Of a DNA stretch of 51,662 nucleotides, positions 1-24,846 are shown in pieces. The notes under the pieces were generated by a model. It did not search any database. It saw only the letters and a list, made by a program, of their open reading frames with translations, and was not told the origin of the DNA. The stretch lies in the sequence record NC_049826.1. One strand, 5' to 3'. The translations under genes and the position numbers were made by a program. Origin of the DNA: Escherichia phage aaroes. Each line of letters opens with the position of its first letter. Positions within the stretch are counted from its first letter, which is position 1.

Positions 1-68
1 TTTTGTTAAAACGCCAGGCCTTGTGTCGGGCATAATTATTTCATCAAAACGAACAAGAGGAAAACAAA
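1..68 (+). promoter_or_regulatory. truncated copy of recurrent early promoter-leader cassette
   Basis: Window starts inside the core (TTTTGTTAAAAC), then GC inverted repeat, CATAAT at 31-36, and a leader/RBS (GAGGAAAACAAAATG) almost identical to the copy at 10911-10979. Confidence 0.5.
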
Positions 69-248
69 ATGGTTGTTTACGATCCACGCGCTTTTAAAAT
101 TGCTCAAGAAGTTTCACGCGAATCTGTTGCTGGCGGTTCGGTTAACGGCTATCAGTTTGATTGGTCGGCAGCAATGACCTTGCTTAAGGTTGCATATGGT
201 CACGCGCCAATTGAAACAGCGGAGGAATATTATAAGCATGAAGGTTGA
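69..248 (+). CDS. hypothetical small protein (58 aa)
   Basis: ATG at 69 after cassette RBS; stop TGA 246-248; below the ORF-track length cutoff. Confidence 0.35.
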   Translation: MVVYDPRAFKIAQEVSRESVAGGSVNGYQFDWSAAMTLLKVAYGHAPIETAEEYYKHEG

Positions 249-480
249 GCAAGGTAGGCAGGCTGTATGGGATCACGCAAAGGAATGCGGGATCGCAGAA
301 GACATATCCAGGATAGCGAAATATTTTGATATTGCTGACATAAGCATTATCAGCGGCGACAAAATGACATTTCTCAATGAACGCCCGCGCAAGATGCATC
401 GCGTCCCAGCAATACCAACAAAGATTGATTTCAAAGAGGCTATGGCGAAAATTCGCGAGCCGCGCAAATACTACAAATGA
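238..480 (+). CDS. hypothetical protein (80 aa)
   Basis: ATG at 238 with GAGGAA RBS; the track ORF 190-480 is the same frame extended upstream. Confidence 0.45.
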   Translation: MKVEQGRQAVWDHAKECGIAEDISRIAKYFDIADISIISGDKMTFLNERPRKMHRVPAIPTKIDFKEAMAKIREPRKYYK

Positions 481-568
481 GGATTATTATCATGTGGCGT
501 TTGTTACCCTGTTATGATGGCGATCTCTATTGTATACGTTGTCATAATGAGATAAGGAGAATTTTTTG

Positions 569-1699
569 ATGAAGCAAATCAAAATCACAGATGAACAATT
601 TATCAATGAGCGCAAGCAGGGAAAGACATATAAGCAGATCGCTAATGAGTATGGCATGAACGTTCGAAGCATTGAGCGACGTGCGGCACGATTAGCAAAG
701 CAAGGTAAAGTTACAACCATCGGATCGCCTGGTTTTGGTGTTACTGGAGAATCAAAGCTAATTGATAAAGATGGCAATGTTGTTATGACATGGATTAAGA
801 CAAGCAAGGACCGCGAACAGTTAGAAGCATTAATGCAGGCCGCTATGGATGCATTTAGCGAAGAAGTTCCGCGACTTGATCCACAGCCAGAATCACAAAA
901 GGATTATAGCGAGACGTTATCACTGTATCCGATATTTGACATGCACTTGGGCGCAATGGCGCATAAGCATGAATGCGGCGAGAATTGGGATACAGCAACA
1001 GCAGAGCGCGTAATGAATAATTTCATTGATTATTCCATCCAGTGCGCGCCGGATAGTGAAAAGGCTGTTTTGCTGATTGGTGGTGATATGCTTCACAGCG
1101 ACGGACTGGAAGCGGTAACGCCTGCAAGCGGTCACGTATTAGATCAAGATAGTCGATATGCAAAACTTGTTTATGTTGCTATCCGGTCGGTTCGTCGAGC
1201 AATTACAAAGCTGTTATCAAAACACAAAAACGTCGAGATCCAAATCATTGAAGGCAACCACGACCAAAGCGGTATGATCTGGTTGCGCGCAGCAATGGCG
1301 GCAGCATATGAGAATGAGCCGCGAGTGCATGTTGATGTGTCTCCGCGAGTAGTTCATCACACACAATATGGCAAAACGTTCCTGGCATACCATCACGGGC
1401 ATACTATCCGCAAACCTGAAACATTGCTCATGATGTGCGCGGCAGACTGGCGCGAAGATTTCGGCAATTCAAAAATGATGTATACTCACGTAGGGCACTG
1501 GCATCATCAGACAGTAACTGAAACAAGCCTGGGCATTGTTGAAGTGCATAGCACTATGGCGGCAAAAGATGCATATGCGGCGCGCGGTGGATGGCGTTCT
1601 CGTCGCCGTGCGGCTGTTATTGTTTACGATAAAGAATACGGCGAAGTCGGGCGATTTATGCATTATCCAGAAATGGCTGATCGAACTTTTAATTATTAA
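569..1699 (+). CDS. calcineurin-like metallophosphoesterase (Mre11/SbcD-type motifs) with N-terminal HTH
   Basis: AAGGAG RBS then ATG 569; motifs DMH, GGDMLHSD, GNHD, HHGH in order; N-terminal ~50 aa HTH-like (TYKQIANEYGMNVRSIERRAARL). Confidence 0.6.
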   Translation: MKQIKITDEQFINERKQGKTYKQIANEYGMNVRSIERRAARLAKQGKVTTIGSPGFGVTGESKLIDKDGNVVMTWIKTSKDREQLEALMQAAMDAFSEEVPRLDPQPESQKDYSETLSLYPIFDMHLGAMAHKHECGENWDTATAERVMNNFIDYSIQCAPDSEKAVLLIGGDMLHSDGLEAVTPASGHVLDQDSRYAKLVYVAIRSVRRAITKLLSKHKNVEIQIIEGNHDQSGMIWLRAAMAAAYENEPRVHVDVSPRVVHHTQYGKTFLAYHHGHTIRKPETLLMMCAADWREDFGNSKMMYTHVGHWHHQTVTETSLGIVEVHSTMAAKDAYAARGGWRSRRRAAVIVYDKEYGEVGRFMHYPEMADRTFNY

Positions 1700-1727
1700 A
1701 ATATCAATATAAATCATCAATTTAATT

Positions 1728-1757
1728 GGGCGAGGCATTTTGCTTTGCCCTTTTTTT
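1728..1757 (+). terminator. intrinsic terminator after phosphoesterase gene
   Basis: Imperfect GC stem (GGGCGAGGCA / TGCTTTGCCC) followed by a 7-T run. Confidence 0.5.
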
Positions 1758-1830
1758 ATTCCTTTTTGTGCGTTCAATGGTTAGGATACAATCAATTAAT
1801 TGTTGACTTTTATTTACAGGAGATCTAATC

Positions 1831-2046
1831 ATGAAAGATTTTTTAAACGCTGCAACTTCCGGCACTGGCGGCGCGTCAATCACTGGCGCGGTAACTGGTC
1901 AAACAACGATTGCAATAGCCAGCTTCGTTTTGATGGCTGCATTTGGTATGTGGGGCGCTTATCTTCGTTGGCGTGATAGTAAGGCGCTACGTGACGCGCT
2001 TGAATGCGGTGATATTAAGAAGGCTATTGAAATCAGGGGTAAATAA
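1831..2046 (+). CDS. holin (possible pinholin)
   Basis: 71 aa, hydrophobic Gly/Ala-rich TM segments and charged C-terminus; AGGAG RBS; stop overlaps endolysin start. Confidence 0.55.
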
Positions 2047-2534
2047 TGAGCATAAAACAAAGAGTGACCGCTGCGGCTTTTGGCGTTGCTCTTGCTCTTA
2101 CTTCTCCATTACTGGAGGAAATAGAAGGAGTAAAATATAAGCCGTACAAAGATATTGCTGGAATATGGACGGTTTGCGCCGGAATAACTGGACCTGACGT
2201 AATACCAGGTAAGACGTACACACAGAGAGAGTGCGATGCGCTACTGGCAAAGCATATCAAGATCGCAAAGGATGAAGTTGATAAGCGCGTGAAGGTTGAT
2301 ATTCCTGATACAATGCGCGCGGCAATGTATTCATTCACGTATAATGCTGGCACTGGTGCTTTTAGAAATTCAACCATGCTTAAGCTGATTAATAAAGGCC
2401 GTTACATGGAAGCGTGCGATCAGTTATGGCGATGGACCAAATACACCAATCCAAAAACAGGAAAGAAAGAAACGTCTAAAGGACTGCGCAACCGCCGCGC
2501 CGTGGAATTTAAATATTGCATTAAGGATCTGTAA
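2046..2534 (+). CDS. endolysin, T4-lysozyme-like (GH24), possible SAR type
   Basis: E...D...T catalytic-triad-like stretch ([25 protein letters not shown]); weakly hydrophobic Ala/Gly-rich N-terminus typical of signal-anchor-release lysins. Confidence 0.7.
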
Positions 2535-2536
2535 TT

Positions 2537-2935
2537 ATGAGAAAGTTATCAGTAATCGCGATCGCTGTTATCTTGTCTGGATGTTCAAGCGTTACGCCAC
2601 TGACCGGATTGATAGGAAGCAAGCCTGAGATAACAGCACAGGCAGGAGCGGAGAACGTAAAACAGACCGTCGGACTGACAGCAAAACAGGACGCCAGCAC
2701 AAAACAGGATACGACAATTAAAGAGTCGAAAGTTGACACTGTTGATACTTCAAACAAAAAGGAGATCAAAACGTCAACCATTCAGGCCAATACCATCAAG
2801 GCTGATAAAATCCAGGTCGTGCAGGGTGAGCAAGGCAAGTGGTACGATCCTATAATATATTGCGCGGCAATTTTTAGTGGTCTTTTGTCAATGCTTTACT
2901 TTTCCTGCCGAAAGGGCAACAAAAAGGAGGCTTAA
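2537..2935 (+). CDS. unimolecular spanin (lipoprotein with C-terminal TM domain)
   Basis: Lipobox LSGC after a signal sequence plus C-terminal hydrophobic helix; position right after the endolysin, as in T1 gp11. Confidence 0.55.
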   Translation: MRKLSVIAIAVILSGCSSVTPLTGLIGSKPEITAQAGAENVKQTVGLTAKQDASTKQDTTIKESKVDTVDTSNKKEIKTSTIQANTIKADKIQVVQGEQGKWYDPIIYCAAIFSGLLSMLYFSCRKGNKKEA

Positions 2936-2948
2936 CGCTTCCTTTGTT

Positions 2949-3164
2949 TTATGCATCAGCCCACATATAACTTTCGTTTGTGAGTTTTGCATATTCGCGA
3001 ACTTCAAATTCGCACTTATCACCGTACATCTCCGCGACTTTCTTCTCGTTCGCTACCGCTGATTCCTCGGTCCATCCATCAGCTTTGCTGTAAAGAGTTG
3101 GAATCTCACTGCTAGTACCGTTGGAGTGATTATAAACGCGAACTACTAAAAATTTGTTAGCCAT
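2949..3164 (-). CDS. hypothetical early protein (71 aa)
   Basis: ORF behind a cassette copy; RBS GAAGGAAAACATC before ATG. Confidence 0.5.
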   Translation of the reverse strand: MANKFLVVRVYNHSNGTSSEIPTLYSKADGWTEESAVANEKKVAEMYGDKCEFEVREYAKLTNESYMWADA

Positions 3165-3247
3165 GATGTTTTCCTTCTGGTCGTTTCGTCTCGATGAAAC
3201 AAATATACCCGATACGAGATCGGGTGTTTTAACAAAAAGTGCTATTC
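3165..3247 (-). promoter_or_regulatory. early promoter-leader cassette copy
   Basis: Read on minus strand: GAATAGCACTTTTTGTTAAAAC, hairpin CCCGAT-loop-ATCGGG, TATATT, leader CATCGAGACGAAACGA; TAG of the upstream ORF lies in the core. Confidence 0.55.
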
Positions 3248-3436
3248 AATACGCTTTACAGTAACCAACAAAACTCCGTCCTCATCACACAAATTATGCT
3301 CTGATATATCAAACGCTCGCATGTCAGAATGAATGAGCGTTAACATTGCGTGCATGAAGTCGTCATGTGAGATTGAACTTACGGCGCAGAACTTCAATAT
3401 TTTGTCTATTAGCATTTGACGTAAACAATTCTTCAT
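3242..3436 (-). CDS. hypothetical protein (64 aa)
   Basis: GGAGA RBS before ATG at 3436; overlaps the 3' end of the upstream ORF by 74 nt in another frame; stop TAG is inside the repeat core. Confidence 0.4.
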   Translation of the reverse strand: MKNCLRQMLIDKILKFCAVSSISHDDFMHAMLTLIHSDMRAFDISEHNLCDEDGVLLVTVKRIE

Positions 3437-3755
3437 CGCTCATTTCTCCGATCCGTAAAACATCCCTTACCCATTCGTTTTGCATACCTTCCAGGCTGTA
3501 AAGTTCAAACGAGAAAGGGCGATTTGCTGATCCTTTCTTACACCAGAACTTTCCACCAACTCCATCAAGATAACCAGCGGTCATCATTCTTGCGCAAAAT
3601 TCTTTTGAAACGGCAGTTGCAAACATCCTCGGCGTAAATCCTGCGGCCCTTGCGAGCCGCTCACATTCTCTGTGCTGAAAGATAAATTTTGCTATATGTT
3701 GACGTGTAAACCATTCGAATGACTCACACCAGCGATACAGATCCAGAAGAAACAT
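3363..3755 (-). CDS. hypothetical protein (130 aa)
   Basis: ATG 2 nt after the stop of the P-loop gene (translational coupling). Confidence 0.5.
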   Translation of the reverse strand: MFLLDLYRWCESFEWFTRQHIAKFIFQHRECERLARAAGFTPRMFATAVSKEFCARMMTAGYLDGVGGKFWCKKGSANRPFSFELYSLEGMQNEWVRDVLRIGEMSDEELFTSNANRQNIEVLRRKFNLT

Positions 3756-3757
3756 AA

Positions 3758-5341
3758 TTACCCTAGCAATGTTGGATTTACGAAAACAACGCCATTAATC
3801 ACACAAATATAATTTCTTTCCTCAAGCATCGGAAGCAGTTGCGTTTCCATGCGCTTCATTACTCCAGCCTGACCAACAAAAGGCTTAACTTTTCGTGCAG
3901 CCTCATATATGGCGCGCACATTCAAGATTCCCTTATTAGCCTTTCCGTGTCGAGTGATGATCTCGATTAGTTTACCCATTTCAGCATCATCACCAGCATA
4001 GCCAGAAGCGTTTGCGGCGCTAATGTATGTTTTGCTCAACTCGCTAAACATCAGCAATGCTTCCTGAACGGTTTCAACCTCAATCTCTTTCGACTTCTGA
4101 GGGTATCCACCAGGATTAAACCAATTGCGGATAGTGTGCAAAACCGAAGCAATCCTGATCACCTGCTTATCCATTTTGCCAAGCGCACCTCGCAGCATTG
4201 TATGCGAATACTTTCCGCCATCAGCAAGGTGCGGTTCCATCTCCTGACGAGCCATGTTAAGCACTCGCATTGCGGATTTGCTGATCTTAAGCTGGATGTT
4301 TGATTCGCTCATGATGTTATGGATCAGCTTAAAATATTGGCTTTTCAGTTCTCCATCAACAGGCTCATAAGTCGAATCACCGTTATCATCAACAAATTTT
4401 CGACGACCTAAAAATGATTCTTCACGCACAAGCAAATAACGCTCACTCACACCGATACCGCGCGATCCTGCATCCATGATGGCATTAATTGTTTCATCCT
4501 GGGCAATTACTGCCATGCAGCCAAGAGCTTTAAAACTCATGTTATTGTCTGCGTTTGCGCGAGCTATAGAAACATGACCGTGATCCCATGCTTTTAGCAC
4601 AAGTTCGCTGTTTGTTTTGCGTTCGCTATTGGCATATGTCAGACCTAAAAGGCTGTTAATACTCGTTGCCTCGTCTGAAATTACAGCAAAGTTACCCTGG
4701 CGATTGTTGATTCTTGCAAGTCCTTCCGGCGTGGTATCGGACACAGGGAAAACAATGTCACACATCTTTTCAAGTTTTTCTTCAAGATCTTCTTTCTCTT
4801 GGTATAGCGATTCCATATCAGCGCCAGATCGCTCGCTTTTCATCTCTTTTGCAAGACCTGCCAACTTTGCCTGAATCTTTTTTCGTTCCTTCTTTCGCTG
4901 ATCATTAATTCTTTCTACTTCAGCAACCATAGGAGCAAGTGCCAGGCTGTTAACGGCAGATTTACCAGTTGAAGGAGGCTGGCTTGTGACAACATAAAGA
5001 GCTGTCGGCTGATCCGTTCCGTGATACTCAACCGTGAAGCGTCCAAGCATTGCAGCAGACACGCATCCGATAAAATGCATATAGGCCGATGATTCAGGGA
5101 ATTGAACAGAGCGAGCAATGTTGCGCGCCAACTTACCAACAACATCAACATCATTGCCAAGAGAAATTACAGGGTAGCGATCGTTTCCGTTATTAACATC
5201 ATTAACCTCACCCCAAAAGCTGGACGATTGACGGTATCCGTTAGCCTGAATGGATACGCGCACCGGAGACAATCCTTGCGCATCAGCTAATTCGATAATT
5301 TGTTTTGGTGTTAGTTTATTGGTTTCAAACGAAAAATTCAT
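3758..5341 (-). CDS. P-loop NTPase of unknown function (527 aa)
   Basis: AAGGAG RBS before ATG 5341; Walker A-like QPPSTGKS and Walker B-like AVISDEAT; charged coiled-coil segment after the P-loop. Confidence 0.55.
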   Translation of the reverse strand: MNFSFETNKLTPKQIIELADAQGLSPVRVSIQANGYRQSSSFWGEVNDVNNGNDRYPVISLGNDVDVVGKLARNIARSVQFPESSAYMHFIGCVSAAMLGRFTVEYHGTDQPTALYVVTSQPPSTGKSAVNSLALAPMVAEVERINDQRKKERKKIQAKLAGLAKEMKSERSGADMESLYQEKEDLEEKLEKMCDIVFPVSDTTPEGLARINNRQGNFAVISDEATSINSLLGLTYANSERKTNSELVLKAWDHGHVSIARANADNNMSFKALGCMAVIAQDETINAIMDAGSRGIGVSERYLLVREESFLGRRKFVDDNGDSTYEPVDGELKSQYFKLIHNIMSESNIQLKISKSAMRVLNMARQEMEPHLADGGKYSHTMLRGALGKMDKQVIRIASVLHTIRNWFNPGGYPQKSKEIEVETVQEALLMFSELSKTYISAANASGYAGDDAEMGKLIEIITRHGKANKGILNVRAIYEAARKVKPFVGQAGVMKRMETQLLPMLEERNYICVINGVVFVNPTLLG

Positions 5342-5414
5342 TGGTGATAACTCCTTTTTGATGCGGCAATAATACCGCACCAATGCTACCCGCATTTAAC
5401 AAAAAATACTATTT
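5342..5414 (-). promoter_or_regulatory. early promoter-leader cassette copy (variant core AATAGTATTTTTTGTTAA)
   Basis: Core followed by inverted repeat ATGCGG...CCGCAT containing TATTAT, then AAGGAG RBS. Confidence 0.5.
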
Positions 5415-5630
5415 GATCCGCTCTATGCTAACTAAGATTTTTTCTGGTTCCTTTTCGCTATGGCAATGCGCGGTTACGGAATCAGCAAAATCAAAATAAA
5501 GTGATTTGTGGTAAGAAAGACCAATCAGCCATCCAACCATCGTTTTCTTTATTGGCCTGACTATATCGCCAGGCTTGAAGGTTTTTGTTGCTGAATAAGT
5601 CACCTTATAGCGATATTCAGTCTTGATCAC
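5409..5630 (-). CDS. hypothetical protein (73 aa, GTG start)
   Basis: Open frame with GTG start and GAGG RBS; stop TAG inside the repeat core; start uncertain. Confidence 0.35.
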   Translation of the reverse strand: MIKTEYRYKVTYSATKTFKPGDIVRPIKKTMVGWLIGLSYHKSLYFDFADSVTAHCHSEKEPEKILVSIERIK

Positions 5631-6013
5631 TTATACATAGCCTCAAACAAATGACAGCCACCAGCGGAAAATCCTACTTCTTCGCGGTATAGCGTCCAGC
5701 GGTCGCCAGCTTCATCAAAAACATAACCAGCAACAGCACCAAGCGCTCGCCCTTGCTCAATCTGGTAACGCTTTCCTTCTTTGAAATGTTTTTTGCACGG
5801 TATCTTGTGATCTACAAAGGTGCATTTAATTGTTTTTGTCTTGATATGACGATAGTCAGACTCAACAGCGTTTTGCCATTTGCTACCCTTTGTAATGCTC
5901 TTTACCTGGAATTGCTCCAACTCGATCACATCATCGCTACCAGAAATTTTTTCGTATACGGTTTTATAACGACCGTTCATCAAAACGTTGGTTTTATTGC
6001 AGATAACTTTCAT
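5627..6013 (-). CDS. hypothetical protein (128 aa)
   Basis: AAAGGAG RBS before ATG 6013; follows a cassette copy. Confidence 0.5.
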   Translation of the reverse strand: MKVICNKTNVLMNGRYKTVYEKISGSDDVIELEQFQVKSITKGSKWQNAVESDYRHIKTKTIKCTFVDHKIPCKKHFKEGKRYQIEQGRALGAVAGYVFDEAGDRWTLYREEVGFSAGGCHLFEAMYK

Positions 6014-6091
6014 CGTTTATTTCTCCTTTCGTTTCGGTGAGGTGATTATGCCAGGCTTTTACACCTGGCTTTTAACAAAAAGTGCTATTTT
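6014..6091 (-). promoter_or_regulatory. early promoter-leader cassette copy
   Basis: Minus strand: AAAATAGCACTTTTTGTTAAAAG, hairpin GCCAGG...CCTGGC, CATAAT, leader CACCGAAACGAAAGGAG. Confidence 0.55.
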
Positions 6092-6795
6092 GCGTTAGCT
6101 TCAAAGACTGCGCGGGCAAAACCGCGCGGGGTGAGGGAGCGGATCATCTTTGTGCGCGATGACTTGCCGCCAGTTTTGGCCCAGCCTGGATTATCTTTGT
6201 CGTTCTCTTTCGGCAGGATTAAAGCGCGTGGAGGAATAACAAAGCCGTTGCCAGTCCAGAGGCATGTTTTCTTAAAATAGCGATCCCGCGCCGGAATAAT
6301 ATCAGGGAAGTCGGGATGTTTATCATCTTCCGGCAGATAGCCAGCGTAATCGCACGGATGGAACGTATAATCAGGCTTACGCCATAACGTTGACAGCTTG
6401 CCTACAGGATTCTCTATCATGTAAGGAACACCGAAATAATCAGCGATATGCGCCGCTATTTTGCAAGTGTCGGCGGCCTCACCCTGGAACGATGGATTCT
6501 CAAGGCGCTTTTTGGACCAATGGCGAGATCCGCTATTCGCAAGGTCAGTGCAAGGTGGGAAGGCCATAATGAAATCAGGCTTACCCCAATTTTCAAGTTT
6601 TGCGGTATATTTGAATAGCTCATCAATCCACACATTAACGTAAAAAATATTGTCGTGGATTATGCGTACTGAGTGGTAATCACCGTGATCTGCATCATCG
6701 TAATTAAAGCAAATGCATTTATATCCAGCATCAGCCCAATCTTTAACGGCTTTACCAGATCCATCAAACAAAGAGAAAATTAAACCCTTATACAT
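6085..6795 (-). CDS. compact DNA cytosine-C5 methyltransferase-like protein (236 aa)
   Basis: C5-MTase motif order: I LFDGSG, IV FPPC, VI ENPVG, C-terminal LTPRGFARA (resembles the TPRE-ARLQGFP block); no room for a large target-recognition domain. Confidence 0.6.
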   Translation of the reverse strand: MYKGLIFSLFDGSGKAVKDWADAGYKCICFNYDDADHGDYHSVRIIHDNIFYVNVWIDELFKYTAKLENWGKPDFIMAFPPCTDLANSGSRHWSKKRLENPSFQGEAADTCKIAAHIADYFGVPYMIENPVGKLSTLWRKPDYTFHPCDYAGYLPEDDKHPDFPDIIPARDRYFKKTCLWTGNGFVIPPRALILPKENDKDNPGWAKTGGKSSRTKMIRSLTPRGFARAVFEANAK

Positions 6796-6804
6796 TTCAT
6801 CACC

Positions 6805-7029
6805 TCAAAACGGAAAGCATCGCTGGCAGTTAGGATCGAAGTTGCAGCCGCAATCATTGACAATCATTGTTGGATCTGCAAATGCAGCGCCGCATTCATG
6901 GTCCATATCCATTTCACCCAACGCATCATCAAGCGTCCTGATTTTATATGCGACTTCAAGCGCGGCCTCTTTATTCAGTCCGGCATCTTCTGCTTTTTGC
7001 AGTCGCTCAAAAAATCCGTCCTGACTCAT
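6805..7029 (-). CDS. hypothetical Cys-rich small protein (74 aa)
   Basis: Acidic N-terminus and C-terminal cluster of 6 Cys (possible metal-binding knuckle). Confidence 0.45.
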   Translation of the reverse strand: MSQDGFFERLQKAEDAGLNKEAALEVAYKIRTLDDALGEMDMDHECGAAFADPTMIVNDCGCNFDPNCQRCFPF

Positions 7030-7127
7030 TTAATAAACTCCTTAATAACAGTAAGAAGAATTGCAAGCCAAAGCAAACCAACAAGGCCAATCATCACGAC
7101 AAATAAAATATCAAGAAATTTCATCAT
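7026..7127 (-). CDS. hypothetical 33-aa hydrophobic peptide
   Basis: AAAGGTG RBS, tandem ATG, single TM-like helix; stop TGA overlaps the ATG of 6805-7029 (ATGA); below the ORF-track cutoff. Confidence 0.3.
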   Translation of the reverse strand: MMKFLDILFVVMIGLVGLLWLAILLTVIKEFIK

Positions 7128-7174
7128 TATTATCACCTTTATTTAAAGGGAGGAGGAAACCTCCCATTGATTAA

Positions 7175-7402
7175 TCATACAGCCTTCCAGCTTTCAATAA
7201 ACATGCTGTTTTCTTCCAGCAGTTTAATCAATTCTTCGCGCGTGTATTTGCGGATTTTACTACCTGGATGTGAGCCAACAACAAACACACCTTTGCCACT
7301 CGTGATTGTTAACTGGTTGATTCCGCAAGATTTATCCATCTTAATGGCGACGCGGTGATGCGCATCAACAGTGTGCATGATGTTAGTGACTTTAGCTTTC
7401 AT
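7175..7402 (-). CDS. hypothetical protein (75 aa)
   Basis: GAGGA RBS before internal ATG (MKAKVTN...); the track ORF extends into the promoter. Confidence 0.45.
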   Translation of the reverse strand: MKAKVTNIMHTVDAHHRVAIKMDKSCGINQLTITSGKGVFVVGSHPGSKIRKYTREELIKLLEENSMFIESWKAV

Positions 7403-7477
7403 TATGCAATCCTCATTATATTTGGTGTGGTAACTATACCAGGTTTGAGAAATATTGTTTAGCAATTAGTGCTATCA
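7403..7477 (-). promoter_or_regulatory. early promoter cassette, variant core (TAGCACTAATTGCTAAAC)
   Basis: Variant core followed about 21 nt later by TATAGT and then TATAAT just before the RBS. Confidence 0.45.
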
Positions 7478-7576
7478 GTTGAAATAGCCATGGCGCTTTG
7501 CTCGCTTTCCGTCTCCGCCATAATGATCATTAGAAACGGCAATCATCCAGGCATTATGGAATATTATTATCTTCAT

Positions 7577-7858
7577 CTAATTAATGCCAACAACGTTAAA
7601 ACTTACAACTTTTGTTCCGCTAAACACATACGCTTCAACAGATCCACCAAATAAACGAATTTTTCCCTGGCCATACTGCGCATTCATATTGCGCCAAACC
7701 GTCATGTTAGAACAGGACGCGTTACCATTCTTGATAAGATTATCCATCTTTTTCATTAGATTATGATAATCAAGCCAGAATCTATAAGCGCGTTGTTTAG
7801 TTCGCGCCGCCTTGATTGTTTCGGCTGAGTTTTTAAAATCGCTGTTTTTGTAGGCCAT
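7577..7858 (-). CDS. hypothetical protein (93 aa)
   Basis: ORF; stop overlaps start of the downstream gene by 1 nt. Confidence 0.45.
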   Translation of the reverse strand: MAYKNSDFKNSAETIKAARTKQRAYRFWLDYHNLMKKMDNLIKNGNASCSNMTVWRNMNAQYGQGKIRLFGGSVEAYVFSGTKVVSFNVVGIN

Positions 7859-8052
7859 TACACAACCTCCATAAAAGTATTGAATCCACGCAGTTTGAAA
7901 GCATTGCCATGTTTAACAACGTTCCATGTCAGGCCGGAGTGATACGCAACCATATCCTCAAGATCAATGGTGATGATAGCGCCTTTCTTAAAGATTCCTT
8001 TCTCGTGAGTGGTGTCGCGCTGCACAACTTTAACATCAACCTGTGTTTCCAT
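7858..8052 (-). CDS. hypothetical protein (64 aa)
   Basis: ORF directly behind a cassette copy. Confidence 0.45.
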   Translation of the reverse strand: METQVDVKVVQRDTTHEKGIFKKGAIITIDLEDMVAYHSGLTWNVVKHGNAFKLRGFNTFMEVV

Positions 8053-8129
8053 TTTTAAATACTCGCTCGTTGTCGATGCGCTTAATATACCAATCAGAGG
8101 CGCATCGTTTTTAACAAAAAGTGCTATTC
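8053..8129 (-). promoter_or_regulatory. early promoter-leader cassette copy
   Basis: Minus strand: GAATAGCACTTTTTGTTAAAAA, hairpin GATGCGC...GCGCATC with TATATT in the loop, leader CATCGACAACGAG. Confidence 0.55.
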
Positions 8130-8414: not shown

Positions 8415-8556
8415 AATCAACAACTCCAAATTCGTTAACGATCTGCGCCTTATAGAATCCGCCATTTTTAGCCAGGTTATAACAGGAGGCGACAGTCTCA
8501 AATTCGCGCGCTTCCGGCTGGCTGTTTTCGTTCTCCCAGGTAATCAGAGTAACCAT
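8404..8556 (-). CDS. hypothetical small protein (50 aa)
   Basis: GAGGA RBS, ATG right after the cassette; translationally coupled to 8124-8414; missed by the ORF track. Confidence 0.35.
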   Translation of the reverse strand: MVTLITWENENSQPEAREFETVASCYNLAKNGGFYKAQIVNEFGVVDYEF

Positions 8557-8636
8557 TTTAAAATCCTCGCATTCGTTGTCGATGTGTGTAATATATCGGA
8601 TCGCGAGGATTGAGTTTTAACAAAAAGTGCTATTTA
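8557..8636 (-). promoter_or_regulatory. early promoter-leader cassette copy
   Basis: Minus strand: AAATAGCACTTTTTGTTAAAAC, inverted repeat around ATATATTACACACATCGACAACGA. Confidence 0.55.
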
Positions 8637-9159: not shown

Positions 9160-9428
9160 TTCTTGATCTCCTCAGCAATGAACTTCAATACCTTGCGCAA
9201 AAACACTTCGTTATTGATGGTGGCTGGCAATTCTTCTTTCACTTCTTGCGGCAGGTAAATATTGCCGTGCCAGGTTAAGCAATCGTAGTTGATGCGGTAA
9301 GAGCAAAGCCACTCGCAATCGTTATCCGCTTCCCAAATGCAAAGCTGCATGACGTCGCCAAAATCTTCAACAGTCAGTTCCAGGCCATGACGCTTAGCGA
9401 AGTTGAAAGTTGTTTTGCTGATGTTCAT
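9156..9428 (-). CDS. hypothetical protein (90 aa)
   Basis: ORF behind a cassette copy, RBS GGAGACGG. Confidence 0.45.
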   Translation of the reverse strand: MNISKTTFNFAKRHGLELTVEDFGDVMQLCIWEADNDCEWLCSYRINYDCLTWHGNIYLPQEVKEELPATINNEVFLRKVLKFIAEEIKK

Positions 9429-9513
9429 CTTACCGTCTCCTGATGGGTGTCTCGTTTCGATGTGTGTAATGTACCCGATCAGGCGGATTCAGTTTTAACA
9501 AAAAGTGCTATTT
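9429..9513 (-). promoter_or_regulatory. early promoter-leader cassette copy
   Basis: Minus strand: AAATAGCACTTTTTGTTAAAAC, TACATT, leader CACACATCGAAACGAGACACC, RBS. Confidence 0.5.
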
Positions 9514-9514
9514 C

Positions 9515-9703
9515 TCAACTGGCGATTATTCCACCTATTCCATTAATCAGGAATAACAGGAATAACTCATTCGAGATCACCTGGATTGTGAGATCTTGAG
9601 TTTGATCAATTTTAATCAGGTGATTAACTTTTTGTGTGGAGGGGATAGAGAAACGCGATCCTCTCGCATCCTTTCCGGCAATCCTGGCGCGCAACATGTT
9701 CAT
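9515..9703 (-). CDS. hypothetical protein (62 aa), possible first gene of the leftward early block
   Basis: ATG after GGATGG; sequence is repeat-rich; stop precedes the cassette core. Confidence 0.3.
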   Translation of the reverse strand: MNMLRARIAGKDARGSRFSIPSTQKVNHLIKIDQTQDLTIQVISNELFLLFLINGIGGIIAS

Positions 9704-9719
9704 TATGTTTCCATCCGTT

Positions 9720-10060
9720 CACGCAAATGAGCCTCCGCAGTTCTTCCACGTTTCATGCTGTCATGCACACAAAAGAAACAATGTAAAATCTATATAAATA
9801 CACATTAAATCAATAAGTTATTTATATATGTATTTATATTTGTTTCTTATTGTTCTTGTTGTGTGATGGTTATTGGTATATGTTGCGATTTTTGTGTTGG
9901 TGGATATTGATTGTTTATTGTTCGATTTGGTTGATGATTATGGTTGCTCATGGTTGCGTATGATTCTTGATGTATTTATGTATATATCCGCGAAAATTCG
10001 TGAACAGCCACACAGCCAAAAAACATGGTGAGGATTCTTTTTAAATCATGCACTTAACTG
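9720..10060. other. AT-rich, GT-iteron-rich non-coding control region at the strand switch
   Basis: About 340 bp without a credible ORF; repeated TGATT/TGGTT/TGTGTG units; shares ATAAATCAATAAGTTA and TGTT(C)TTATTGTT with 39480-39800. Confidence 0.5.
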
Positions 10061-10111
10061 TGAATTTTGTTTCCGCGCAATCTCCACACGTATAGCAAAC
10101 AATTAGAACGC

Positions 10112-10140
10112 TTGACATCGACACGGCGCGGTGGCAACAT
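10112..10140 (+). promoter_or_regulatory. candidate sigma70-type promoter for the rightward early block
   Basis: TTGACA, 17-nt spacer, CAACAT, about 40 nt upstream of the first plus-strand ORF. Confidence 0.35.
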
Positions 10141-10641: not shown

Positions 10642-10904
10642 TGGCTATGATGAAAATTCGCAAAGCAACAGATGATTTCATCCGCAGTAATGCGGAAAGC
10701 GGTCGCCTGTACGTTGCATTCGTGGAGCGCAAGAGAAAGCGCGGAAAGATTGTTGCGACTGAGCGGTTATTCAAGATGAAGCCGAGAACTGAATGCGAAT
10801 GCAAAAAGGATTGCGGTTTTTACTTCGGATGCCGTTGCAGCACGATAGAAAACGCGCGAACGCTCATAGATGAAGGAAAAGTATACTTCAATCCGGCAGA
10901 ATAG
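10641..10904 (+). CDS. hypothetical protein with C-terminal Cys cluster (87 aa)
   Basis: GGAGGA RBS; ECECKKDCGFYFGCRCS zinc-ribbon-like end; stop TAG inside the repeat core. Confidence 0.5.
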   Translation: MAMMKIRKATDDFIRSNAESGRLYVAFVERKRKRGKIVATERLFKMKPRTECECKKDCGFYFGCRCSTIENARTLIDEGKVYFNPAE

Positions 10905-10976
10905 CACTTTTTGTTAAAACGCCAGGTGCGAATCCTGGCATAATAGCCTCATCGAAACGAGATTGAGGAAAACAAA
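10901..10976 (+). promoter_or_regulatory. early promoter-leader cassette copy (canonical)
   Basis: ATAGCACTTTTTGTTAAAAC, hairpin GCCAGG-tgcgaat-CCTGGC, CATAAT, leader ATCGAAACGAG, GAGGAAAACAAA, ATG. Confidence 0.6.
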
Positions 10977-11162
10977 ATGGCACGTCGCATCACCAAAGAC
11001 CTTAAAGTCCTGAACAAAGAAAACGTAGTTAAAATCCTGGTTATCTGGGGATACAACGAAGAAGCAGCAAAGCAGAAGGTAGAGGCAGGTTATGACCTGG
11101 CTGTAAAAGCAATGCCAAACGACGACGCCAAAGGCATTGCAAACTATGTAGCGTTCTTTTAA
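10977..11162 (+). CDS. hypothetical protein (61 aa)
   Basis: ORF directly behind the cassette. Confidence 0.5.
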   Translation: MARRITKDLKVLNKENVVKILVIWGYNEEAAKQKVEAGYDLAVKAMPNDDAKGIANYVAFF

Positions 11163-12365: not shown

Positions 12366-12438
12366 ATAGCACGAATTGTTAAAACTCAAATGTGGGGCCA
12401 AGTATAATGGCCTCACTTTCAACGAAGGAGATAAAACG
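12365..12438 (+). promoter_or_regulatory. early promoter cassette copy (core variant ...CACGAATTGTTAAAAC)
   Basis: Core then inverted repeat GGGGCC...GGCC enclosing TATAAT, then AAGGAG RBS. Confidence 0.55.
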
Positions 12439-13509: not shown

Positions 13510-13667
13510 CCTGGTTACTTTTAATCTTTGTCACAAGTTACAACTCCGCCGCTATTGAATCGCATGAGTTCCACAGCGAATCAAGATGTCAGGAAGCACG
13601 AAAGCAAGTTGTTCTCCACATGTCAGATAGTGGAAAAGATGTAACGGCGTTATGTGTCCGTAAATAG
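13506..13667 (+). CDS. hypothetical small protein with N-terminal hydrophobic segment (53 aa)
   Basis: GGAGGG RBS before ATG 13506, overlapping the upstream stop; stop adjoins the repeat core. Confidence 0.35.
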   Translation: MTWLLLIFVTSYNSAAIESHEFHSESRCQEARKQVVLHMSDSGKDVTALCVRK

Positions 13668-13738
13668 CACTTTTTGCAAAAACAGATTGTTGGGCTTGCG
13701 GTATAGTAAGCCCATCGACAACGAAAAAGGAAAACATC
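13663..13738 (+). promoter_or_regulatory. early promoter-leader cassette copy
   Basis: AATAGCACTTTTTGCAAAAAC, inverted repeat GGGCTT...AAGCCC enclosing TATAGT, leader CCCATCGACAACGAAAAAGGAAAACATC. Confidence 0.55.
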
Positions 13739-14434: not shown

Positions 14435-15025
14435 ATGAAACGAGACATTATCATCCTTAACGGACCGCCTGGAGTTGGCAAGGATACGCTTGCGGCATAC
14501 TTAACGGGCCATCGTTACGCAGCGGTTAAAGCGTCGTTTAAACAGCCTATGTTTGATATTGCGTTTTCCATGCTTGGCGTTTACCGATATGACGAGTTCA
14601 TTGATCTGTATAACGACCGCGAGCAGAAAGAAAAGCCTCAAGCAATCTTGCAAGGCAAGTCGCCTCGCCAGTTCATGATCTGGATTAGCGAAGAAGTTAT
14701 GAAGTCAGCTTTTGGCGAGCAATATTTCGGAAATCGCATGGTTGAGCAAGTACACGAGATGTACAGAGATTTAGCTGTTGTAATTAGTGACGGCGGATTC
14801 CCTGAAGAAATCAAGCCGCTAGTTAAGGCAGGCCATGAAGTTCACATTTGCCGACTGCATCGCGAAGGCTTCACGTTTGATGGCGATTCACGAAACTATA
14901 TTGACCTGAACGGATACCATCACCGCGTAAAACATTACGACTTCACAATGATTGATGGCGATCCAGAAAAGACTGTTGACGAGATCATCAAAACGGTCCA
15001 GTGGAAACACATTAAGATCAAATAG
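14435..15025 (+). CDS. P-loop nucleotide kinase, T4 gp1 (dNMP kinase)-like
   Basis: P-loop ILNGPPGVGKDT then AVKASFKQP block, similar in order to T4 gp1 as I recall it; stop TAG in the repeat core. Confidence 0.6.
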   Translation: MKRDIIILNGPPGVGKDTLAAYLTGHRYAAVKASFKQPMFDIAFSMLGVYRYDEFIDLYNDREQKEKPQAILQGKSPRQFMIWISEEVMKSAFGEQYFGNRMVEQVHEMYRDLAVVISDGGFPEEIKPLVKAGHEVHICRLHREGFTFDGDSRNYIDLNGYHHRVKHYDFTMIDGDPEKTVDEIIKTVQWKHIKIK

Positions 15026-15095
15026 CACGAATTGCTAAAAGCGGGGCGCAATGCCTCGCTATAATGCAAACACCAATCAACGAGAGGACTTGAAC
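15021..15095 (+). promoter_or_regulatory. early promoter cassette copy (core AATAGCACGAATTGCTAAAA)
   Basis: Core, GC-rich imperfect repeat, TATAAT 15060-15065, leader AATCAACGAGAGGA. Confidence 0.55.
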
Positions 15096-16081: not shown

Positions 16082-16369
16082 ATGGCTAAAAGCTATCATA
16101 AAATGTTGATTAACGCATTCGAAAAGGCAGCGCTTGAGCGTGGTTGGAATGACTCATTTCACACAGCAAACTGCATCAGACGTTACGGATTCAAGAATTG
16201 CCGCTCATGGGCGCGTGAAATGGCTTCATGGTATGATTTCGATGCGCATTACCTTGATATGGATTGCGCGCTGGTTGAAATGATTGAGCAGGCAGCGCTA
16301 GAGGATCGACCATTGACGCAATCTGATTTTGATGATTTTGTTCGCGATGAAATCTATTACATGAGCTAA
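16082..16369 (+). CDS. hypothetical protein (95 aa)
   Basis: AGGAGGAAACAAATG RBS; stop TAA-TAG runs into the repeat core. Confidence 0.5.
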   Translation: MAKSYHKMLINAFEKAALERGWNDSFHTANCIRRYGFKNCRSWAREMASWYDFDAHYLDMDCALVEMIEQAALEDRPLTQSDFDDFVRDEIYYMS

Positions 16370-16444
16370 TAGCACTTTTTGTTAAAACTTCCGCGAGGGC
16401 ATTTGTTAAAGTGTCCTCATTGAAGCGAAACAGAGGAAAGCACA
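16368..16444 (+). promoter_or_regulatory. early promoter-leader cassette copy
   Basis: AATAGCACTTTTTGTTAAAAC, inverted repeat GAGGGCA...TGTCCTC, leader ATTGAAGCGAAACAGAGGAAAG. Confidence 0.5.
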
Positions 16445-19025: not shown

Positions 19026-20593
19026 TGCTGATTTGGGAAGACTTAACAGCGGCGCAAAAACGCGCCGTTAAGGAAATGAGCGAATATTCATTCGAAAAGA
19101 TGATCCGCATTTGGTTTCAACTTCTCCAGGGGCAAAGGTTCTTAGGAAACTGGCATTTCAGTTACCTATGTAGCGAAGTTGAAAAAATCATCAAAGGAGA
19201 GTCACAGAATGTAATTTTCAACATAACGCCAGGCAGCGGTAAAACAGAGATATTCTCGATCCATATGTCGCCTTACGCGTCATTGAAAAGTAAGAAGGTG
19301 CGAAATCTTAATCTTTCGTTTAGTGATGGCCTTGTCCAGCAGAATAGCAACCGCATTAAGGAGATTATTGGTTCTCCAGAATGGCAGGAGCTATGGCCTG
19401 GAAAGCTGGTAAAGGCAAGCGCAAAGGATCTGATTGTAACCGATGGCGGCAAGGTTAAATTGCAAGTTAACTCGCGATCTATAGGTGGTCAGGTTACTGG
19501 TCTGCGTGGCGGTTACATGGACGATGGATTTACTGGTATGCTGGTTCTTGACGATCCAGACAAGCCGGATGACATGCTTTCTAAGGTAAAGCGCGAAGCC
19601 GGACACATGCGCCTAAAGAACACAGTGCGATCGCGTCGAATGAAGGACACAACGCCCATCGTAATGGTCCAGCAACGGCTACACGTCAATGATTCAACAT
19701 GGTTCATGACAAACGGAGGTATGGGCGGCATCCAGTTTAAGGTTGTTAGCATTCCGGCGCTCGTTACTAAGGAATATCGCGAAACGCTTCCTGATTGGTT
19801 AAAGCCTGAGTTTGATCGCGATGTTTTGTCAAGTAAGCCAGTGATGATTGATGGAGTTGCTCATTATTCATTCTGGCCTGCTAAGGAAAGCGCGGAGGAA
19901 TTGCTTGCGCTTCGAAATGCTGATCCGTACACGTTCGCTAGTCAGTATCAGCAACAGCCTGTTGCGCTTGGCGGTAACGTGTTTAAAACAGAGTGGTTTC
20001 AGTATTACGGAAGCAGTGAGAAATGCACACTACCAAAACCGGATCGCTTTGAATACACATTTATCACGGTTGATACCGCGCAGAAAACAGGGGAGCTTAA
20101 CGACTATTCCGTGATCTGTTATTGGGGGATGTATAAAGATCGTGTTTACTTCATTGATGGCGTTCGCGGAAAATGGGAAGCACCGGACCTTGAGACGAAT
20201 TTTGTTGCATTCGTTAATCAGTGCTGGAAGCGCAATAAAGAATGCGGAACATTGCGAAGGATTCATGTTGAAGATAAGTCGTCTGGCACTGGCTTGATTC
20301 AGAGTGCAGCGAAAAAAATCATGATAAAGATCAATCCAGTTCAGCGTGATAAAGACAAGGTTACTCGTGCAATGGACGCAGCACCAGTAATGCGCGCCGG
20401 ACGCGTGGCACTTCCAGAATCGCATCCTATGCTGGCTGAGATACTAGCTGAAGTTGCGGCGTTTACATTCGATGATAGCCATCCTCATGATGATATTGTT
20501 GATAACATCATTGATGCGGTTAACATTGAAATGAACATGGCAGATGATCCGGTTGGAAGAATGAAAAAATTGGCAGGCTTGCGGAACAAATAG
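19025..20593 (+). CDS. terL: terminase large subunit
   Basis: 522 aa; Walker A ITPGSGKTE, Walker B LVLDDPD, acidic nuclease-like C-terminal half. Confidence 0.85.
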   Translation: MLIWEDLTAAQKRAVKEMSEYSFEKMIRIWFQLLQGQRFLGNWHFSYLCSEVEKIIKGESQNVIFNITPGSGKTEIFSIHMSPYASLKSKKVRNLNLSFSDGLVQQNSNRIKEIIGSPEWQELWPGKLVKASAKDLIVTDGGKVKLQVNSRSIGGQVTGLRGGYMDDGFTGMLVLDDPDKPDDMLSKVKREAGHMRLKNTVRSRRMKDTTPIVMVQQRLHVNDSTWFMTNGGMGGIQFKVVSIPALVTKEYRETLPDWLKPEFDRDVLSSKPVMIDGVAHYSFWPAKESAEELLALRNADPYTFASQYQQQPVALGGNVFKTEWFQYYGSSEKCTLPKPDRFEYTFITVDTAQKTGELNDYSVICYWGMYKDRVYFIDGVRGKWEAPDLETNFVAFVNQCWKRNKECGTLRRIHVEDKSSGTGLIQSAAKKIMIKINPVQRDKDKVTRAMDAAPVMRAGRVALPESHPMLAEILAEVAAFTFDDSHPHDDIVDNIIDAVNIEMNMADDPVGRMKKLAGLRNK

Positions 20594-20619
20594 CACGAAT
20601 TGCTAAAAGAAAGTATAAT
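20589..20619 (+). promoter_or_regulatory. repeat-core copy at the TerL/portal junction followed by TATAAT
   Basis: AATAGCACGAATTGCTAAAAG with the TerL stop TAG inside it; TATAAT 20614-20619 sits just before a terminator hairpin. Confidence 0.4.
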
Positions 20620-20623
20620 CAAA

Positions 20624-20647
20624 GGCTGGTAAATCCAGCCTTTTTTA
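20624..20647 (+). terminator. intrinsic terminator
   Basis: GGCTGG-taaat-CCAGCC plus a 6-T run. Confidence 0.8.
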
Positions 20648-20661
20648 TTGGAGGAAAGATA

Positions 20662-21942
20662 ATGAGTAAATCACGAATCGTTAAGGCTGACGGCTATAAC
20701 GAGATCTTTAAAGGCGAGAATTGCAAATCGCGAGTAGAACAACCATTCTACATGCAATCAATGCCATACAAGACGCTTGCTGACTTTTACGAAAAAGATG
20801 GCCTGGCAAAAAGGATTATTGACGTAGTACCAGAGGAAATGGTTTCCCCTGGCTTTACTGTTGACGGCGTGGCAGACGAGGCTGCATTCCGTTCTTTGTG
20901 GGATGAAAAGCGATTGAATGCAAAAATTATTGATGCGCTTTGCTGGTCGCGTTTGTTTGGCGGATCTGCAATCATTGCTCTTGTTCAGGATGGGCGAGCA
21001 CTCAAATCACCTGTAAAGCCTGGCGCTGTGCTGGAAGATGTTCGCGTTTACGATCGTTATCAGATTCGCGTTGAAGCGCGCGAAACTAATCCCCGCAAGG
21101 TTCGCTATGGTGAGCCAGTGCTTTACACTGTAACGCCAGGCGGAGACTTGCCGGAATACCAGGTACATTACACGCGCGTTTGCATTATCGACGGTGAGCG
21201 GATACCTAACGCAAAGCGACGCAGCAATGATGGCTGGGGTGAGTCAGTTCTTAACAAGCGACTTGTTGAGGCTATTGTTGATTATAACTATTGTGAAACA
21301 TTGGCAACGCAATTATTGCGGAGGAAACAACAGGCGGTATGGAAGGCTAAAGGACTTGCTGACTTGTGCGATGATGAGGAAGGCGTTAGCGCAGCACGTC
21401 TGAGACTTGCGCAGGTTGACGATGAGGGTGGCGTAGGTAGGGCCATTGGTATTGATGCTGAGGATGAGGAATATGATGTTCTTAACTCTGACATTAGCGG
21501 CGTTGATTCTTTCTTGGAAAAGAAAATGGATCGCATAGTTTCCCTTTCAGGTATTCATGAAATCATCCTGAAAAATAAAAACGTTGGCGGCGTTAGCGCA
21601 AGCCAAAACACGGCGCTTGAAACATTCTATAAGCTGATTGAACGAAAACGCGTTGAGGATTACAAGCCTATCCTTGAATTTCTATTGCCGTTCATCATTA
21701 GCGAGCAGGAGTGGAGCATTGAGTTTTCACCTTTGAGCGTACCTAGCGATAAAGATCAGGCTGAAATTCTGAATAAGAATATCGACTCAATCAGCAAGGC
21801 TATTGATGGTCAGTTCCTTGATGTTGAAGAGGCGCGCGACACGTTGCGAGCAATCGCCCCAAGCGTTAAACTAAAGGACACTAATAAAATAAAGCTGCCG
21901 GAGCCATCGGAGCCGGAGCCAGGCACACAGGGGAATGAGTAA
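20662..21942 (+). CDS. portal protein
   Basis: 426-aa ORF directly after TerL with an acidic C-terminus; call rests on position and size. Confidence 0.65.
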   Translation: MSKSRIVKADGYNEIFKGENCKSRVEQPFYMQSMPYKTLADFYEKDGLAKRIIDVVPEEMVSPGFTVDGVADEAAFRSLWDEKRLNAKIIDALCWSRLFGGSAIIALVQDGRALKSPVKPGAVLEDVRVYDRYQIRVEARETNPRKVRYGEPVLYTVTPGGDLPEYQVHYTRVCIIDGERIPNAKRRSNDGWGESVLNKRLVEAIVDYNYCETLATQLLRRKQQAVWKAKGLADLCDDEEGVSAARLRLAQVDDEGGVGRAIGIDAEDEEYDVLNSDISGVDSFLEKKMDRIVSLSGIHEIILKNKNVGGVSASQNTALETFYKLIERKRVEDYKPILEFLLPFIISEQEWSIEFSPLSVPSDKDQAEILNKNIDSISKAIDGQFLDVEEARDTLRAIAPSVKLKDTNKIKLPEPSEPEPGTQGNE

Positions 21943-24827: not shown

Positions 24828-24846
24828 CACAAAATTATGTTGCACG

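Follow-up and report, generated by a model that had tools for sequence, protein, structure and literature searches.

Escherichia phage aaroes (NC_049826.1) carries a recurrent ATCGAAACGA box in the short leaders of its early genes; the window analysed is the whole 51,662-nt stretch. On balance, the box is probably the initial transcribed sequence (ITS, about +1 to +12) of a marbox-type class II promoter cassette placed before most transcription units of T1-like phages. The repeat upstream of it is best read as the consensus marbox, the MarA/SoxS/Rob site, of candidate class II promoters. An earlier note on the same DNA had placed the box between a -10-like hexamer and the ribosome site and missed this context: the box appears to be the downstream end of a composite promoter with a consensus marbox repeat. 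About 165 phage records match the 4-kb stretch around the box at 80-99% identity, the closest being Shigella phage SFP17 and Escherichia phage vB_EcoS_G29-2 (Drexlerviridae; Tempevirinae; Hanrivervirus); the window is therefore an essentially complete T1-like siphophage genome, about 51.6 kb in size, Hanrivervirus-like. Small genes are arranged in two divergent arms, on the minus strand at about 3-9.5 kb and on the plus strand from about 10.1 kb, separated by an AT-rich non-coding region (9512-10100).

Exact copies of the box are few and fixed in place. ATCGAAACGAG has exactly two in the window, 10951-10961 (+) and 9451-9461 (-), and CATCGACAACGA exactly three, 13713-13724 (+), 8067-8078 (-) and 8573-8584 (-). 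Near variants are ATCGAGACGAAACGA at 3181-3195 (-) and ACCGAAACGAA at 6028-6038 (-); weaker ones lie at 15072-15086 (+), 16419-16432 (+), 12415 (+) and 39396 (-). Sequence and place of the box had been described correctly, with coordinates right within a few bases; ATCAACGAG, listed as a copy at 15074, is a weak relative only. The box is present in seven early-gene cassettes of the window, always at one set place: each good copy starts at the 7th base past a -10-like hexamer, which itself lies 22 nt past a 20-nt repeat. Loose matching to the 11-mer with 2 mismatches gives 12 matches in the window vs 15.9 expected. With fuzzy matches at chance level and a fixed place in the cassette, the signal is positional.

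Unique cassettes (264) were collected from the window, T1, TLS and T1-like IMG/VR contigs; 163 were left after redundancy removal. Exact cores CGAAACGA, CGACAACGA and CGAGACGA begin at +3 in 49 of 54 cases among the 264. In three complete genomes, strict cores occur essentially at cassette +3 alone, the exceptions being three strict-core matches in T1 and TLS genes; in-gene matches are nearly all looser variants, e.g. CGAAAACA, and no box cores were found before ribosome sites lacking a cassette. Leaders are 21-33 nt long (median 26 nt) while the cores stay at +3, and in longer leaders the added bases sit between the box and the Shine-Dalgarno sequence. The standard deviation of box position is 1.3 nt relative to +1 vs 3.0 nt relative to ATG. 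The box goes with the promoter rather than with the ribosome site. It is also present in T1, a related contig (L024), TLS-type loci and Klebsiella Webervirus mtp17 (TerL 61% identical), and is therefore old and family-wide.

The cassette measures about 75 nt. Its 21-nt repeat is separated by a fixed gap of 22 nt from a -10 that has G at -14; then come C(-1)A(+1) and a leader rich in A and poor in T, in which CGA triplets stand at +3, +8 and +13. About 20 real cassettes are spread along the genome. The upstream 20-mer repeat has 16 copies at <=3 mismatches in the window vs 0.02 expected. In five complete genomes, a -10-like hexamer lies 21-23 nt past TTGnTA in 77 of 86 repeat copies, at exactly 22 nt in 66 and at 17 nt in one. 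From the fixed spacing the hexamer is taken as a true -10; the box starts where a transcript would be expected to begin. The focal sequence (10900-10979) reads AATAGCACTTTTTGTTAAAA-C-GCCAGGTGCGAATCCTGG-CATAAT-AGCCTC-ATCGAAACGAG-ATT-GAGGA-AAACAAA-ATG. In the logo of the 163 non-redundant cassettes, anchored on the -10 (the hexamer filter itself fixes A(-11) and T(-7)), the repeat extends from -52 to -32. Conserved positions are G(-14) 79%, T(-12) 74%, C(-3) 56%, C(-1) 72% and A(+1) 75%; A reaches 62-69% at +5 to +7 and is frequent again at +10 to +12. The spacer is random; the discriminator is unconserved yet C-rich. Conservation at -1, +1 and +5 to +7 against a random spacer and discriminator makes the box more than a recent duplication. 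Strict-box cassettes are the most consensus-like (C(-1) 100%, A(+1) 94%, G(-14) 94%; repeat mismatches 0.29 vs 0.98). Together with their preference for one marbox subtype, this fits a co-selected 'strong early' class.

The G(-14) and T(-12) frequencies support the earlier suggestion that the hexamer at 10939-10944 acts as a -10. The common start proposed for the early mRNAs is likewise predicted here, with a length of 11-12 nt, the box standing at the canonical start distance with C(-1)A(+1). As in an ITS, the distance from the -10 is fixed, with a pyrimidine at -1 and a purine at +1. TTGTTA/TTGnTA is ruled out as a normal -35 by its 22-nt spacing; the segment from -35 to -30 has no -35-like hexamer and reads AAAACN, with 2/6 matches to TTGACA. 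Sites for sigma54, sigma28, sigma32, CRP, FNR, Fis, IHF and DnaA, judged by eye from their consensus sequences, do not fit the upstream repeat.

The composition of the ITS is distinctive. Positions +3 to +12 contain 49% A and 11% T, and TG occurs at 0.23x expectation (p 1e-19). CCT, TCC and CCC are nearly missing from the leaders. A -10-like hexamer, defined by A at position 2 and T at position 6, is present between +1 and +22 in 1/31 strict-box cassettes and in 18/163 overall, vs 30% of random 22-mers. CGA, ACG and TCG exceed their compositional expectation 2.6-2.9x; CGA triplets start most often at +3 (43), +8/+9 (47) and +13 (9), with a spacing of 5 (29 cases) or 6 (10). The leaders thus hold 2-3 tandem (A/U)NCGA pentamers within +1 to +16 (e.g. 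3181-3195, 10951-10961). This period-5 pattern (ATCGA-AACGA-AACGA) exceeds composition, and no explanation offered here accounts for the period; to our knowledge, no RNA- or DNA-binding specificity fits CGA pentamer repeats.

The proposed mechanism is as follows. An activator on the marbox would replace recognition of a -35, as in host class II marbox promoters. The marbox is followed by 20 nt of free sequence, usually encoding a hairpin, then by the -10 with G(-14), a C-rich discriminator ending in C(-1), and A(+1). Transcription would start at the A of CATCGA, so that the box would form the first bases copied by RNA polymerase and the 5' end of a leader of about 26 nt. With its pyrimidine at -1 and A at +1 at optimal distance, the box would fix the start site; its A-rich, T-poor stretch, free of TG and of -10-like hexamers, would allow quick clearance of an activator-tethered promoter. 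A U-poor, unstructured leader without anti-Shine-Dalgarno sequence would keep the ribosome site open and may resist RNase E. The ITS is known to alter promoter output >10-fold via escape, and in randomised-ITS libraries T's and TG within the first ~7 nt slow escape, while purine content correlates with productive yield (PMC5961368).

The marbox is published as 5'-gcannwwntgnnaaa-3' (PMC12052159). The repeat core GCACTTTTTGTTAAA and its variants GCACGAATTGCTAAA and GCACTAATTGCTAAA match at all specified positions. The window contains 20 perfect matches vs 1.6 expected, 19 of them in cassettes; the longer consensus, reportedly given by Martin et al. in 1999 as AYnGCACnnWnnRYYAAAYn, has 19 matches as a 19-mer (AYNGCACNNWNNRYYAAAY) at <=1 mismatch vs 1.4 expected. 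Another short form of the marbox is CAC(T/G)-7N-AAA. Perfect matches number 20 in T1, 19 in TLS, 14 in mtp17 and 15 in mtp21, vs about 0.5 in shuffles. Where the phage logo is degenerate (N at -43, W at -42/-41, Y at -37), the marbox is degenerate as well. In all cassette copies the marbox points forward, its GCA end away from and its AAA end towards the -10 and gene that follow. If +1 is the A 7 nt past the hexamer, a predicted start site, the marbox lies at about -50 to -31 with its centre near -40. Class II sites in the literature are forward, overlap the -35, cluster near -41, and have a canonical -10 without a recognisable -35. In sequence tests the cassette shows the marbox consensus, the forward orientation, a canonical -10 and no recognisable -35. 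No homologue of MarA, SoxS or Rob was found in the window, T1, TLS or mtp17 (phmmer/hmmsearch against six-frame open reading frames; best E 0.11); the obvious readers would therefore be host proteins, with RamA in Klebsiella.

The closest known counterparts are the class II MarA/SoxS/Rob (RamA) promoters, with micF as archetype, a structurally characterised class II promoter of E. coli. These have a forward, asymmetric marbox near -41 overlapping the -35, a position predicted for the phage cassette too, and share with it the canonical -10 and the lack of a recognisable -35. The marbox of micF has the same orientation as in the cassette and an identical gap of 20 nt between its AAA and the -10. 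Unlike host sites, the phage marboxes occur as about 15-20 perfect copies per 50-kb genome, are far better matches than most host sites, and come with a conserved initial box as well as a hairpin that lies within or encloses the -10 region. The ITS of micF, GCTATCATC, is unrelated to the phage box.

The repeat itself has been reported before. The 21-nt intergenic direct repeat of TLS, aaATAGCACnnnTTGnTAAAA, is the same element as the cassette repeat in sequence, orientation and distance (about 76 nt before start codons). Kropinski, Misra and colleagues (2024, PMC11447400) described 18 intergenic repeats of TLS along the direction of transcription, noted them also in T1, Rtp and Rogue1, found no more than three canonical sigma70 promoters in TLS, and listed the function of the repeat as an open question (stoperator, enhancer site or UP element). 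Their paper makes no mention of a -10 at a fixed 22 nt, a downstream box, hairpins, or marbox, MarA, SoxS or Rob. A literature search combining marbox and phage returned no paper with 'marbox' among the top matches; an earlier description elsewhere is possible.

Early promoters T7 A1, T7 A3 and T5 N25 resemble the box in their C(-1)A(+1)T(+2) start and purine- or A-rich ITS. The mapped T7 A1 start (CATCGAGAGGGAC / CATCGAGAGGG) is box-like, and its ATCGAGA recurs unchanged at +1 to +7 in the 3195 copy; T7 A3 CATGAAACGACAG is also similar, and ATGAAACGA is one base off. The cassette matrix run on T7 1-8000 ranks A1 among the best 0.3% of positions and A3 among the best 6.6%, with no similarity for A2, B and C. 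These promoters differ from the cassette in belonging to unrelated phages, in having canonical -35/-10 elements and in lacking CGA periodicity. The resemblance to A1 and A3 is of modest statistical weight, a lead rather than proof.

It is possible, though somewhat less likely than not, that among the Drexlerviridae of Escherichia, Shigella and Klebsiella the T1-like phages transcribe most of their genes via class II marbox promoters, which would wire phage expression to host MarA/SoxS/Rob(/RamA). The ATCGAAACGA/CGA-repeat start would then be a phage-specific add-on for promoter clearance and early mRNA marking, and about 20 sites per genome copy might titrate the regulators off host stress genes.

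Several points weigh against the promoter reading of box and repeat. The strict box is present in just 31/163 non-redundant cassettes, the others having ACACCAAC-, ATTGAAGC- or T-run leaders, and is therefore not required for cassette function. Leaders are so short that anchoring to +1 and anchoring to the ribosome site are only partly separable. The T7 likeness was noted post hoc and concerns two of five E. coli promoters in T7. CG and CA dinucleotides are 1.7x enriched in the box, yet slowed escape in two of three promoter contexts, and T at +2 was unfavourable at lacUV5 (PMC5961368), so the escape data fit the box only partly. Class II marbox activation is modest, 2-4 fold (PMC8811837); MarA and SoxS are present in small amounts, and Rob is for the most part aggregated in the absence of stress. 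Dependence of a lytic phage on these activators is accordingly not self-evident. A phage protein of divergent structure but equal specificity might be the reader instead. The T1-like phage literature searched for transcript mapping and promoter studies held nothing beyond the TLS paper and yielded no 5' end mapping, protein binding or activation data.

Hairpins are a regular part of the cassette. A hairpin of -4 kcal/mol or stronger is present between -34 and +4 in 130/163 cassettes, and the halves of one cassette pair far better than halves from different cassettes (p 1e-17). The 3' arm ends mostly at -12, within the spacer (e.g. 10921-10939), or at -1, with the -10 in the loop (e.g. 13692-13713). 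Further GC-rich hairpins nested in promoters are seen at 12386-12413 and 5369-5392, in most other cassettes and in related loci (L002-L128). Since transcripts from the cassette's own +1 begin past the 5' arm, the hairpins would form in read-through RNA only. In two minus-strand cassettes, 8556-8634 and 9428-9512, the spacer is complementary to the Shine-Dalgarno region of the cassette's own leader (AATCCTCGC / GCGAGGATT; CCTGATCGGGT / ACCCATCAGG); in read-through RNA this pairing would mask the ribosome site, which would be free in RNA from the own +1. Two other cassettes, 20590-20664 (+) and 47580-47653 (-), qualify as bona fide terminators; their hairpin loop contains the -10 and their ITS is a T-run. 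An example of such overlap between terminator and marbox promoter is AAAGGCTGG-TAAAT-CCAGCCTTTTTT, with a T-rich ITS in place of the box; the same terminator-in-promoter arrangement is seen in T1 (L002) at about 35985 (-).

Among other explanations, the main rival is an RNA-level reader of the CGA repeats: the 5'-terminal (A/U)NCGA pentamers would be a tag read by a phage or host RNA-binding protein or nuclease, to which the early mRNAs as a class would owe their stability, translation or later shut-off, a post-transcriptional early-to-late switch. This is unlikely, though it draws on real features. The CGA, ACG and TCG enrichment and the spacing of 5 or 6 between +3, +8/+9 and +13 suit it. 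Indels of 1 nt between the box halves are tolerated (ATCGA-AACGA vs ATCGACAACGA), as expected of a flexible RNA reader rather than of fixed polymerase contacts, and strict boxes cluster in the two divergent early arms (3-16 kb), before small genes of unknown function. Against a tag, the box is always at +1, never within leaders or before promoterless ribosome sites, a placement that a pure tag would not need. No candidate reader was found; the early proteins have no RNA-binding Pfam or PHROG annotation, and Rfam 15 gives 0 matches at the gathering threshold in the whole window. Hfq recognises (ARN)n and CsrA recognises GGA; by inspection the motif is unlike both. A stable 5' stem-loop is ruled out, the UCG-AAA-CGA mini-hairpin being marginal and the mean minimum free energy of leaders -0.73 kcal/mol. 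RNase processing, another function proposed for the box at the outset, finds no support: an RNase III site would call for a duplex of about 20 bp, and the leaders (mean minimum free energy -0.7 kcal/mol) hold none, the upstream hairpin stems being 5-9 bp. RNase E prefers A/U-rich single-stranded sites, and the U-poor box (11% T) is a poor fit.

Somewhat more doubtful is a translational enhancer, an A/C-rich unstructured leader favouring 30S/S1 loading, with the position at +1 incidental to short leaders. Leaders are indeed less structured than shuffles (-0.73 vs -1.29 kcal/mol), A-rich (49%), nearly devoid of the CCT, TCC and CCC that could mask the Shine-Dalgarno sequence, and narrowly distributed in length around the median of 26 nt. 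The box nevertheless stays at +1 in longer leaders (cores at +3 in 49/54, scatter of 3.0 nt relative to ATG) and its cores are missing before ribosome sites without a cassette; composition alone fails to explain the CGA periodicity. Complementarity to 16S rRNA, suggested in the earlier note and expected of an enhancer of the T7 gene 10 epsilon or downstream-box type, is no better than chance: for five box variants against E. coli rrsH, 72-100% of shuffles pair equally well or better, and the longest perfect match is 6 nt.

It is improbable that the box has no direct role in expression and is kept merely through copying and recombination of whole cassettes, as shuffling joints like the PeSLs of T4-type phages. 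PeSLs are short conserved promoter and hairpin modules before many small early genes, in this respect like the cassettes, and have been proposed as joints for modular shuffling (PMC2839356, PMC4122927). They combine a promoter of the TTGACA-N17-TATAAT type with a separate stem-loop; the cassettes have no -35, a marbox at 22 nt rather than an N17 spacing, and a hairpin within the spacer or around the -10. A repeated composite of promoter and stem-loop is found in both, here in about 20 cassettes. Megablast homology begins at the first base of the repeat (10900), exactly so for 10/15 listed close relatives, and often stops just past the start codon behind cassette 13663, the next-but-one. These edges at 10900 and about 13742 suggest module exchange at cassettes. 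Cassette cores are near-identical with unrelated flanks; the substitution profile of 'orthologous' cassettes is biased by pair choice and was used solely for this comparison of cores and flanks. The strict box is linked to one marbox subtype (26/81 vs 5/82, p 2e-5), a link with which descent is also compatible. Enrichment of breakpoints at cassettes is weak in distant relatives (ends of high-scoring segment pairs 14/231 vs 3.1%, p 0.016) and not significant in the early arms (5/53, p 0.33). Paralogous cassettes randomise spacer and discriminator and keep box, -10 and repeat, which argues for position-specific selection over copying, and the box recurs in different subfamilies and in phages of different host genera.

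A DNA operator at +1 to +12, at which a phage repressor would silence the early promoters, is very improbable. The short inverted repeat TCG-AAA-CGA overlaps the start site, and the phage encodes a candidate, a Cro/YdaS-like helix-turn-helix regulator. The arms of the repeat are, however, just 3 bp, its centre is 3 or 4 bp, and a third CGA unit may follow, unlike an operator for a dimeric helix-turn-helix protein; no box copy lies near the regulator's own gene. This gene (47636-48109, minus strand, 157 aa; phrog_2856 E 3e-78; sub-threshold Pfam P22_Cro/YdaS) adjoins the primase gene, and its product is the sole recognisable transcription regulator encoded by the phage. Hardly to be entertained is a pause element of the sigma70-dependent, promoter-proximal kind known from lambda PR' (AACGAT, +1 to +6): the AACGA(G/A) of the box resembles it, yet lacks the critical final T of the -10-like hexamer, and the rarity of such hexamers in +1 to +22, given above, rules this type of element out.

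Coordinates of the focal cassette and of the other box-bearing cassettes in the window
Feature	Position	Strand	Remarks
Upstream 20/21-nt repeat AATAGCACTTTTTGTTAAAA	10900..10919	+	focal cassette
Perfect marbox match GCACTTTTTGTTAAA (gcannwwntgnnaaa)	10904-10918	+	forward, about -47 to -33
Spacer hairpin GCCAGG-TGCGAAT-CCTGGC, 3' arm abutting the -10	10921..10939	+	-11.3 kcal/mol
Extended -10-like element TGG-CATAAT	10936..10944	+	hexamer 10939-10944
Discriminator AGCCTC, C-rich, ending in C(-1)	10945..10950	+	logo: C(-1) 72%, C(-3) 56%
Box ATCGAAACGAG, predicted +1 to +11	10951..10961	+	focal copy
Shine-Dalgarno GAGGA (10965-10969) and ATG (10977-10979) of a 61-aa DUF7421 protein	10965..10979	+	26-nt leader
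Cassette with box ATCGACAACGA (13714-13724)	13663..13724	+	marbox 13667-13681; -10 TATAGT 13702-13707
Hairpin GGGCTT (13692-13697) / AAGCCC (13708-13713), -10 in loop	13692-13713	+	in cassette 13663..13724
Cassette with exact box ATCGAAACGAG (9451-9461; +1 = 9461)	9451..9512	-	marbox 9494-9508; -10 TACATT 9468-9473
Cassette with box ATCGACAACGA (8573-8583; +1 = 8583)	8573..8634	-	marbox 8616-8630
Cassette with box ATCGACAACGA (8067-8077; +1 = 8077)	8067..8128	-	marbox 8110-8124
Cassette with box variant ACCGAAACGAA (6028-6038; +1 = 6038)	6028..6089	-	marbox 6071-6085
Cassette with three-unit box ATCGAGACGAAACGA (3181-3195; +1 = 3195)	3181..3246	-	marbox 3228-3242
Cassette with weak box ACCAATCAACGAGAG from +1 = 15072	15021..15086	+	marbox 15025-15039
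Cassette with variant leader ATTGAAGCGAAACA from +1 = 16419	16368..16432	+	marbox 16372-16386

Other features of the genome were recorded. Marbox cassettes in antisense orientation lie inside the plus-strand structural gene block at 28581-28625 (-) and 24821-24865 (-). The former is conserved in T1 (L002) at 18840 (-); its transcript would enter the reverse of a terminator hairpin, and its product could be a short antisense RNA. The region 9512-10100 (about 600 bp) between the early arms contains many short TGTT/TTAT-type repeats; genome ends of related records and the T1 terminal repeat map in the same region, a possible pac or origin site. Before the first rightward gene (ATG 10180, DUF7174) stands a canonical sigma70 promoter, with TTGACA at 10112-10117, 17 nt, and CAACAT at 10135-10140, the counterpart of TLS promoter P01. 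The unit from this promoter, independent of the marbox, could be the immediate-early transcript. A box-bearing cassette precedes the gene at 7858-8052 (-) for a 64-aa early protein of Pfam PF25180 'Phage antiviral trigger protein Gp54' (E 1.5e-37).

The box alone is a modest feature, a conserved transcript start; the value lies in the marbox/class II reading of the repeat. This reading is a concrete, testable hypothesis for a repeat whose function the 2024 TLS paper lists as open. If it is true, the cassettes would be compact, stress-tunable promoter parts. The reading, if true, would also be relevant to the combination of phages with antibiotics, such phages being therapy candidates, some with TolC as receptor. 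MarA, SoxS and Rob(/RamA) are regulators of the response to antibiotics, bile and oxidative stress that also control TolC and porins. Coliphages and Klebsiella phages of a very common group would in that case have their growth coupled to the intrinsic multidrug resistance regulon of the host.

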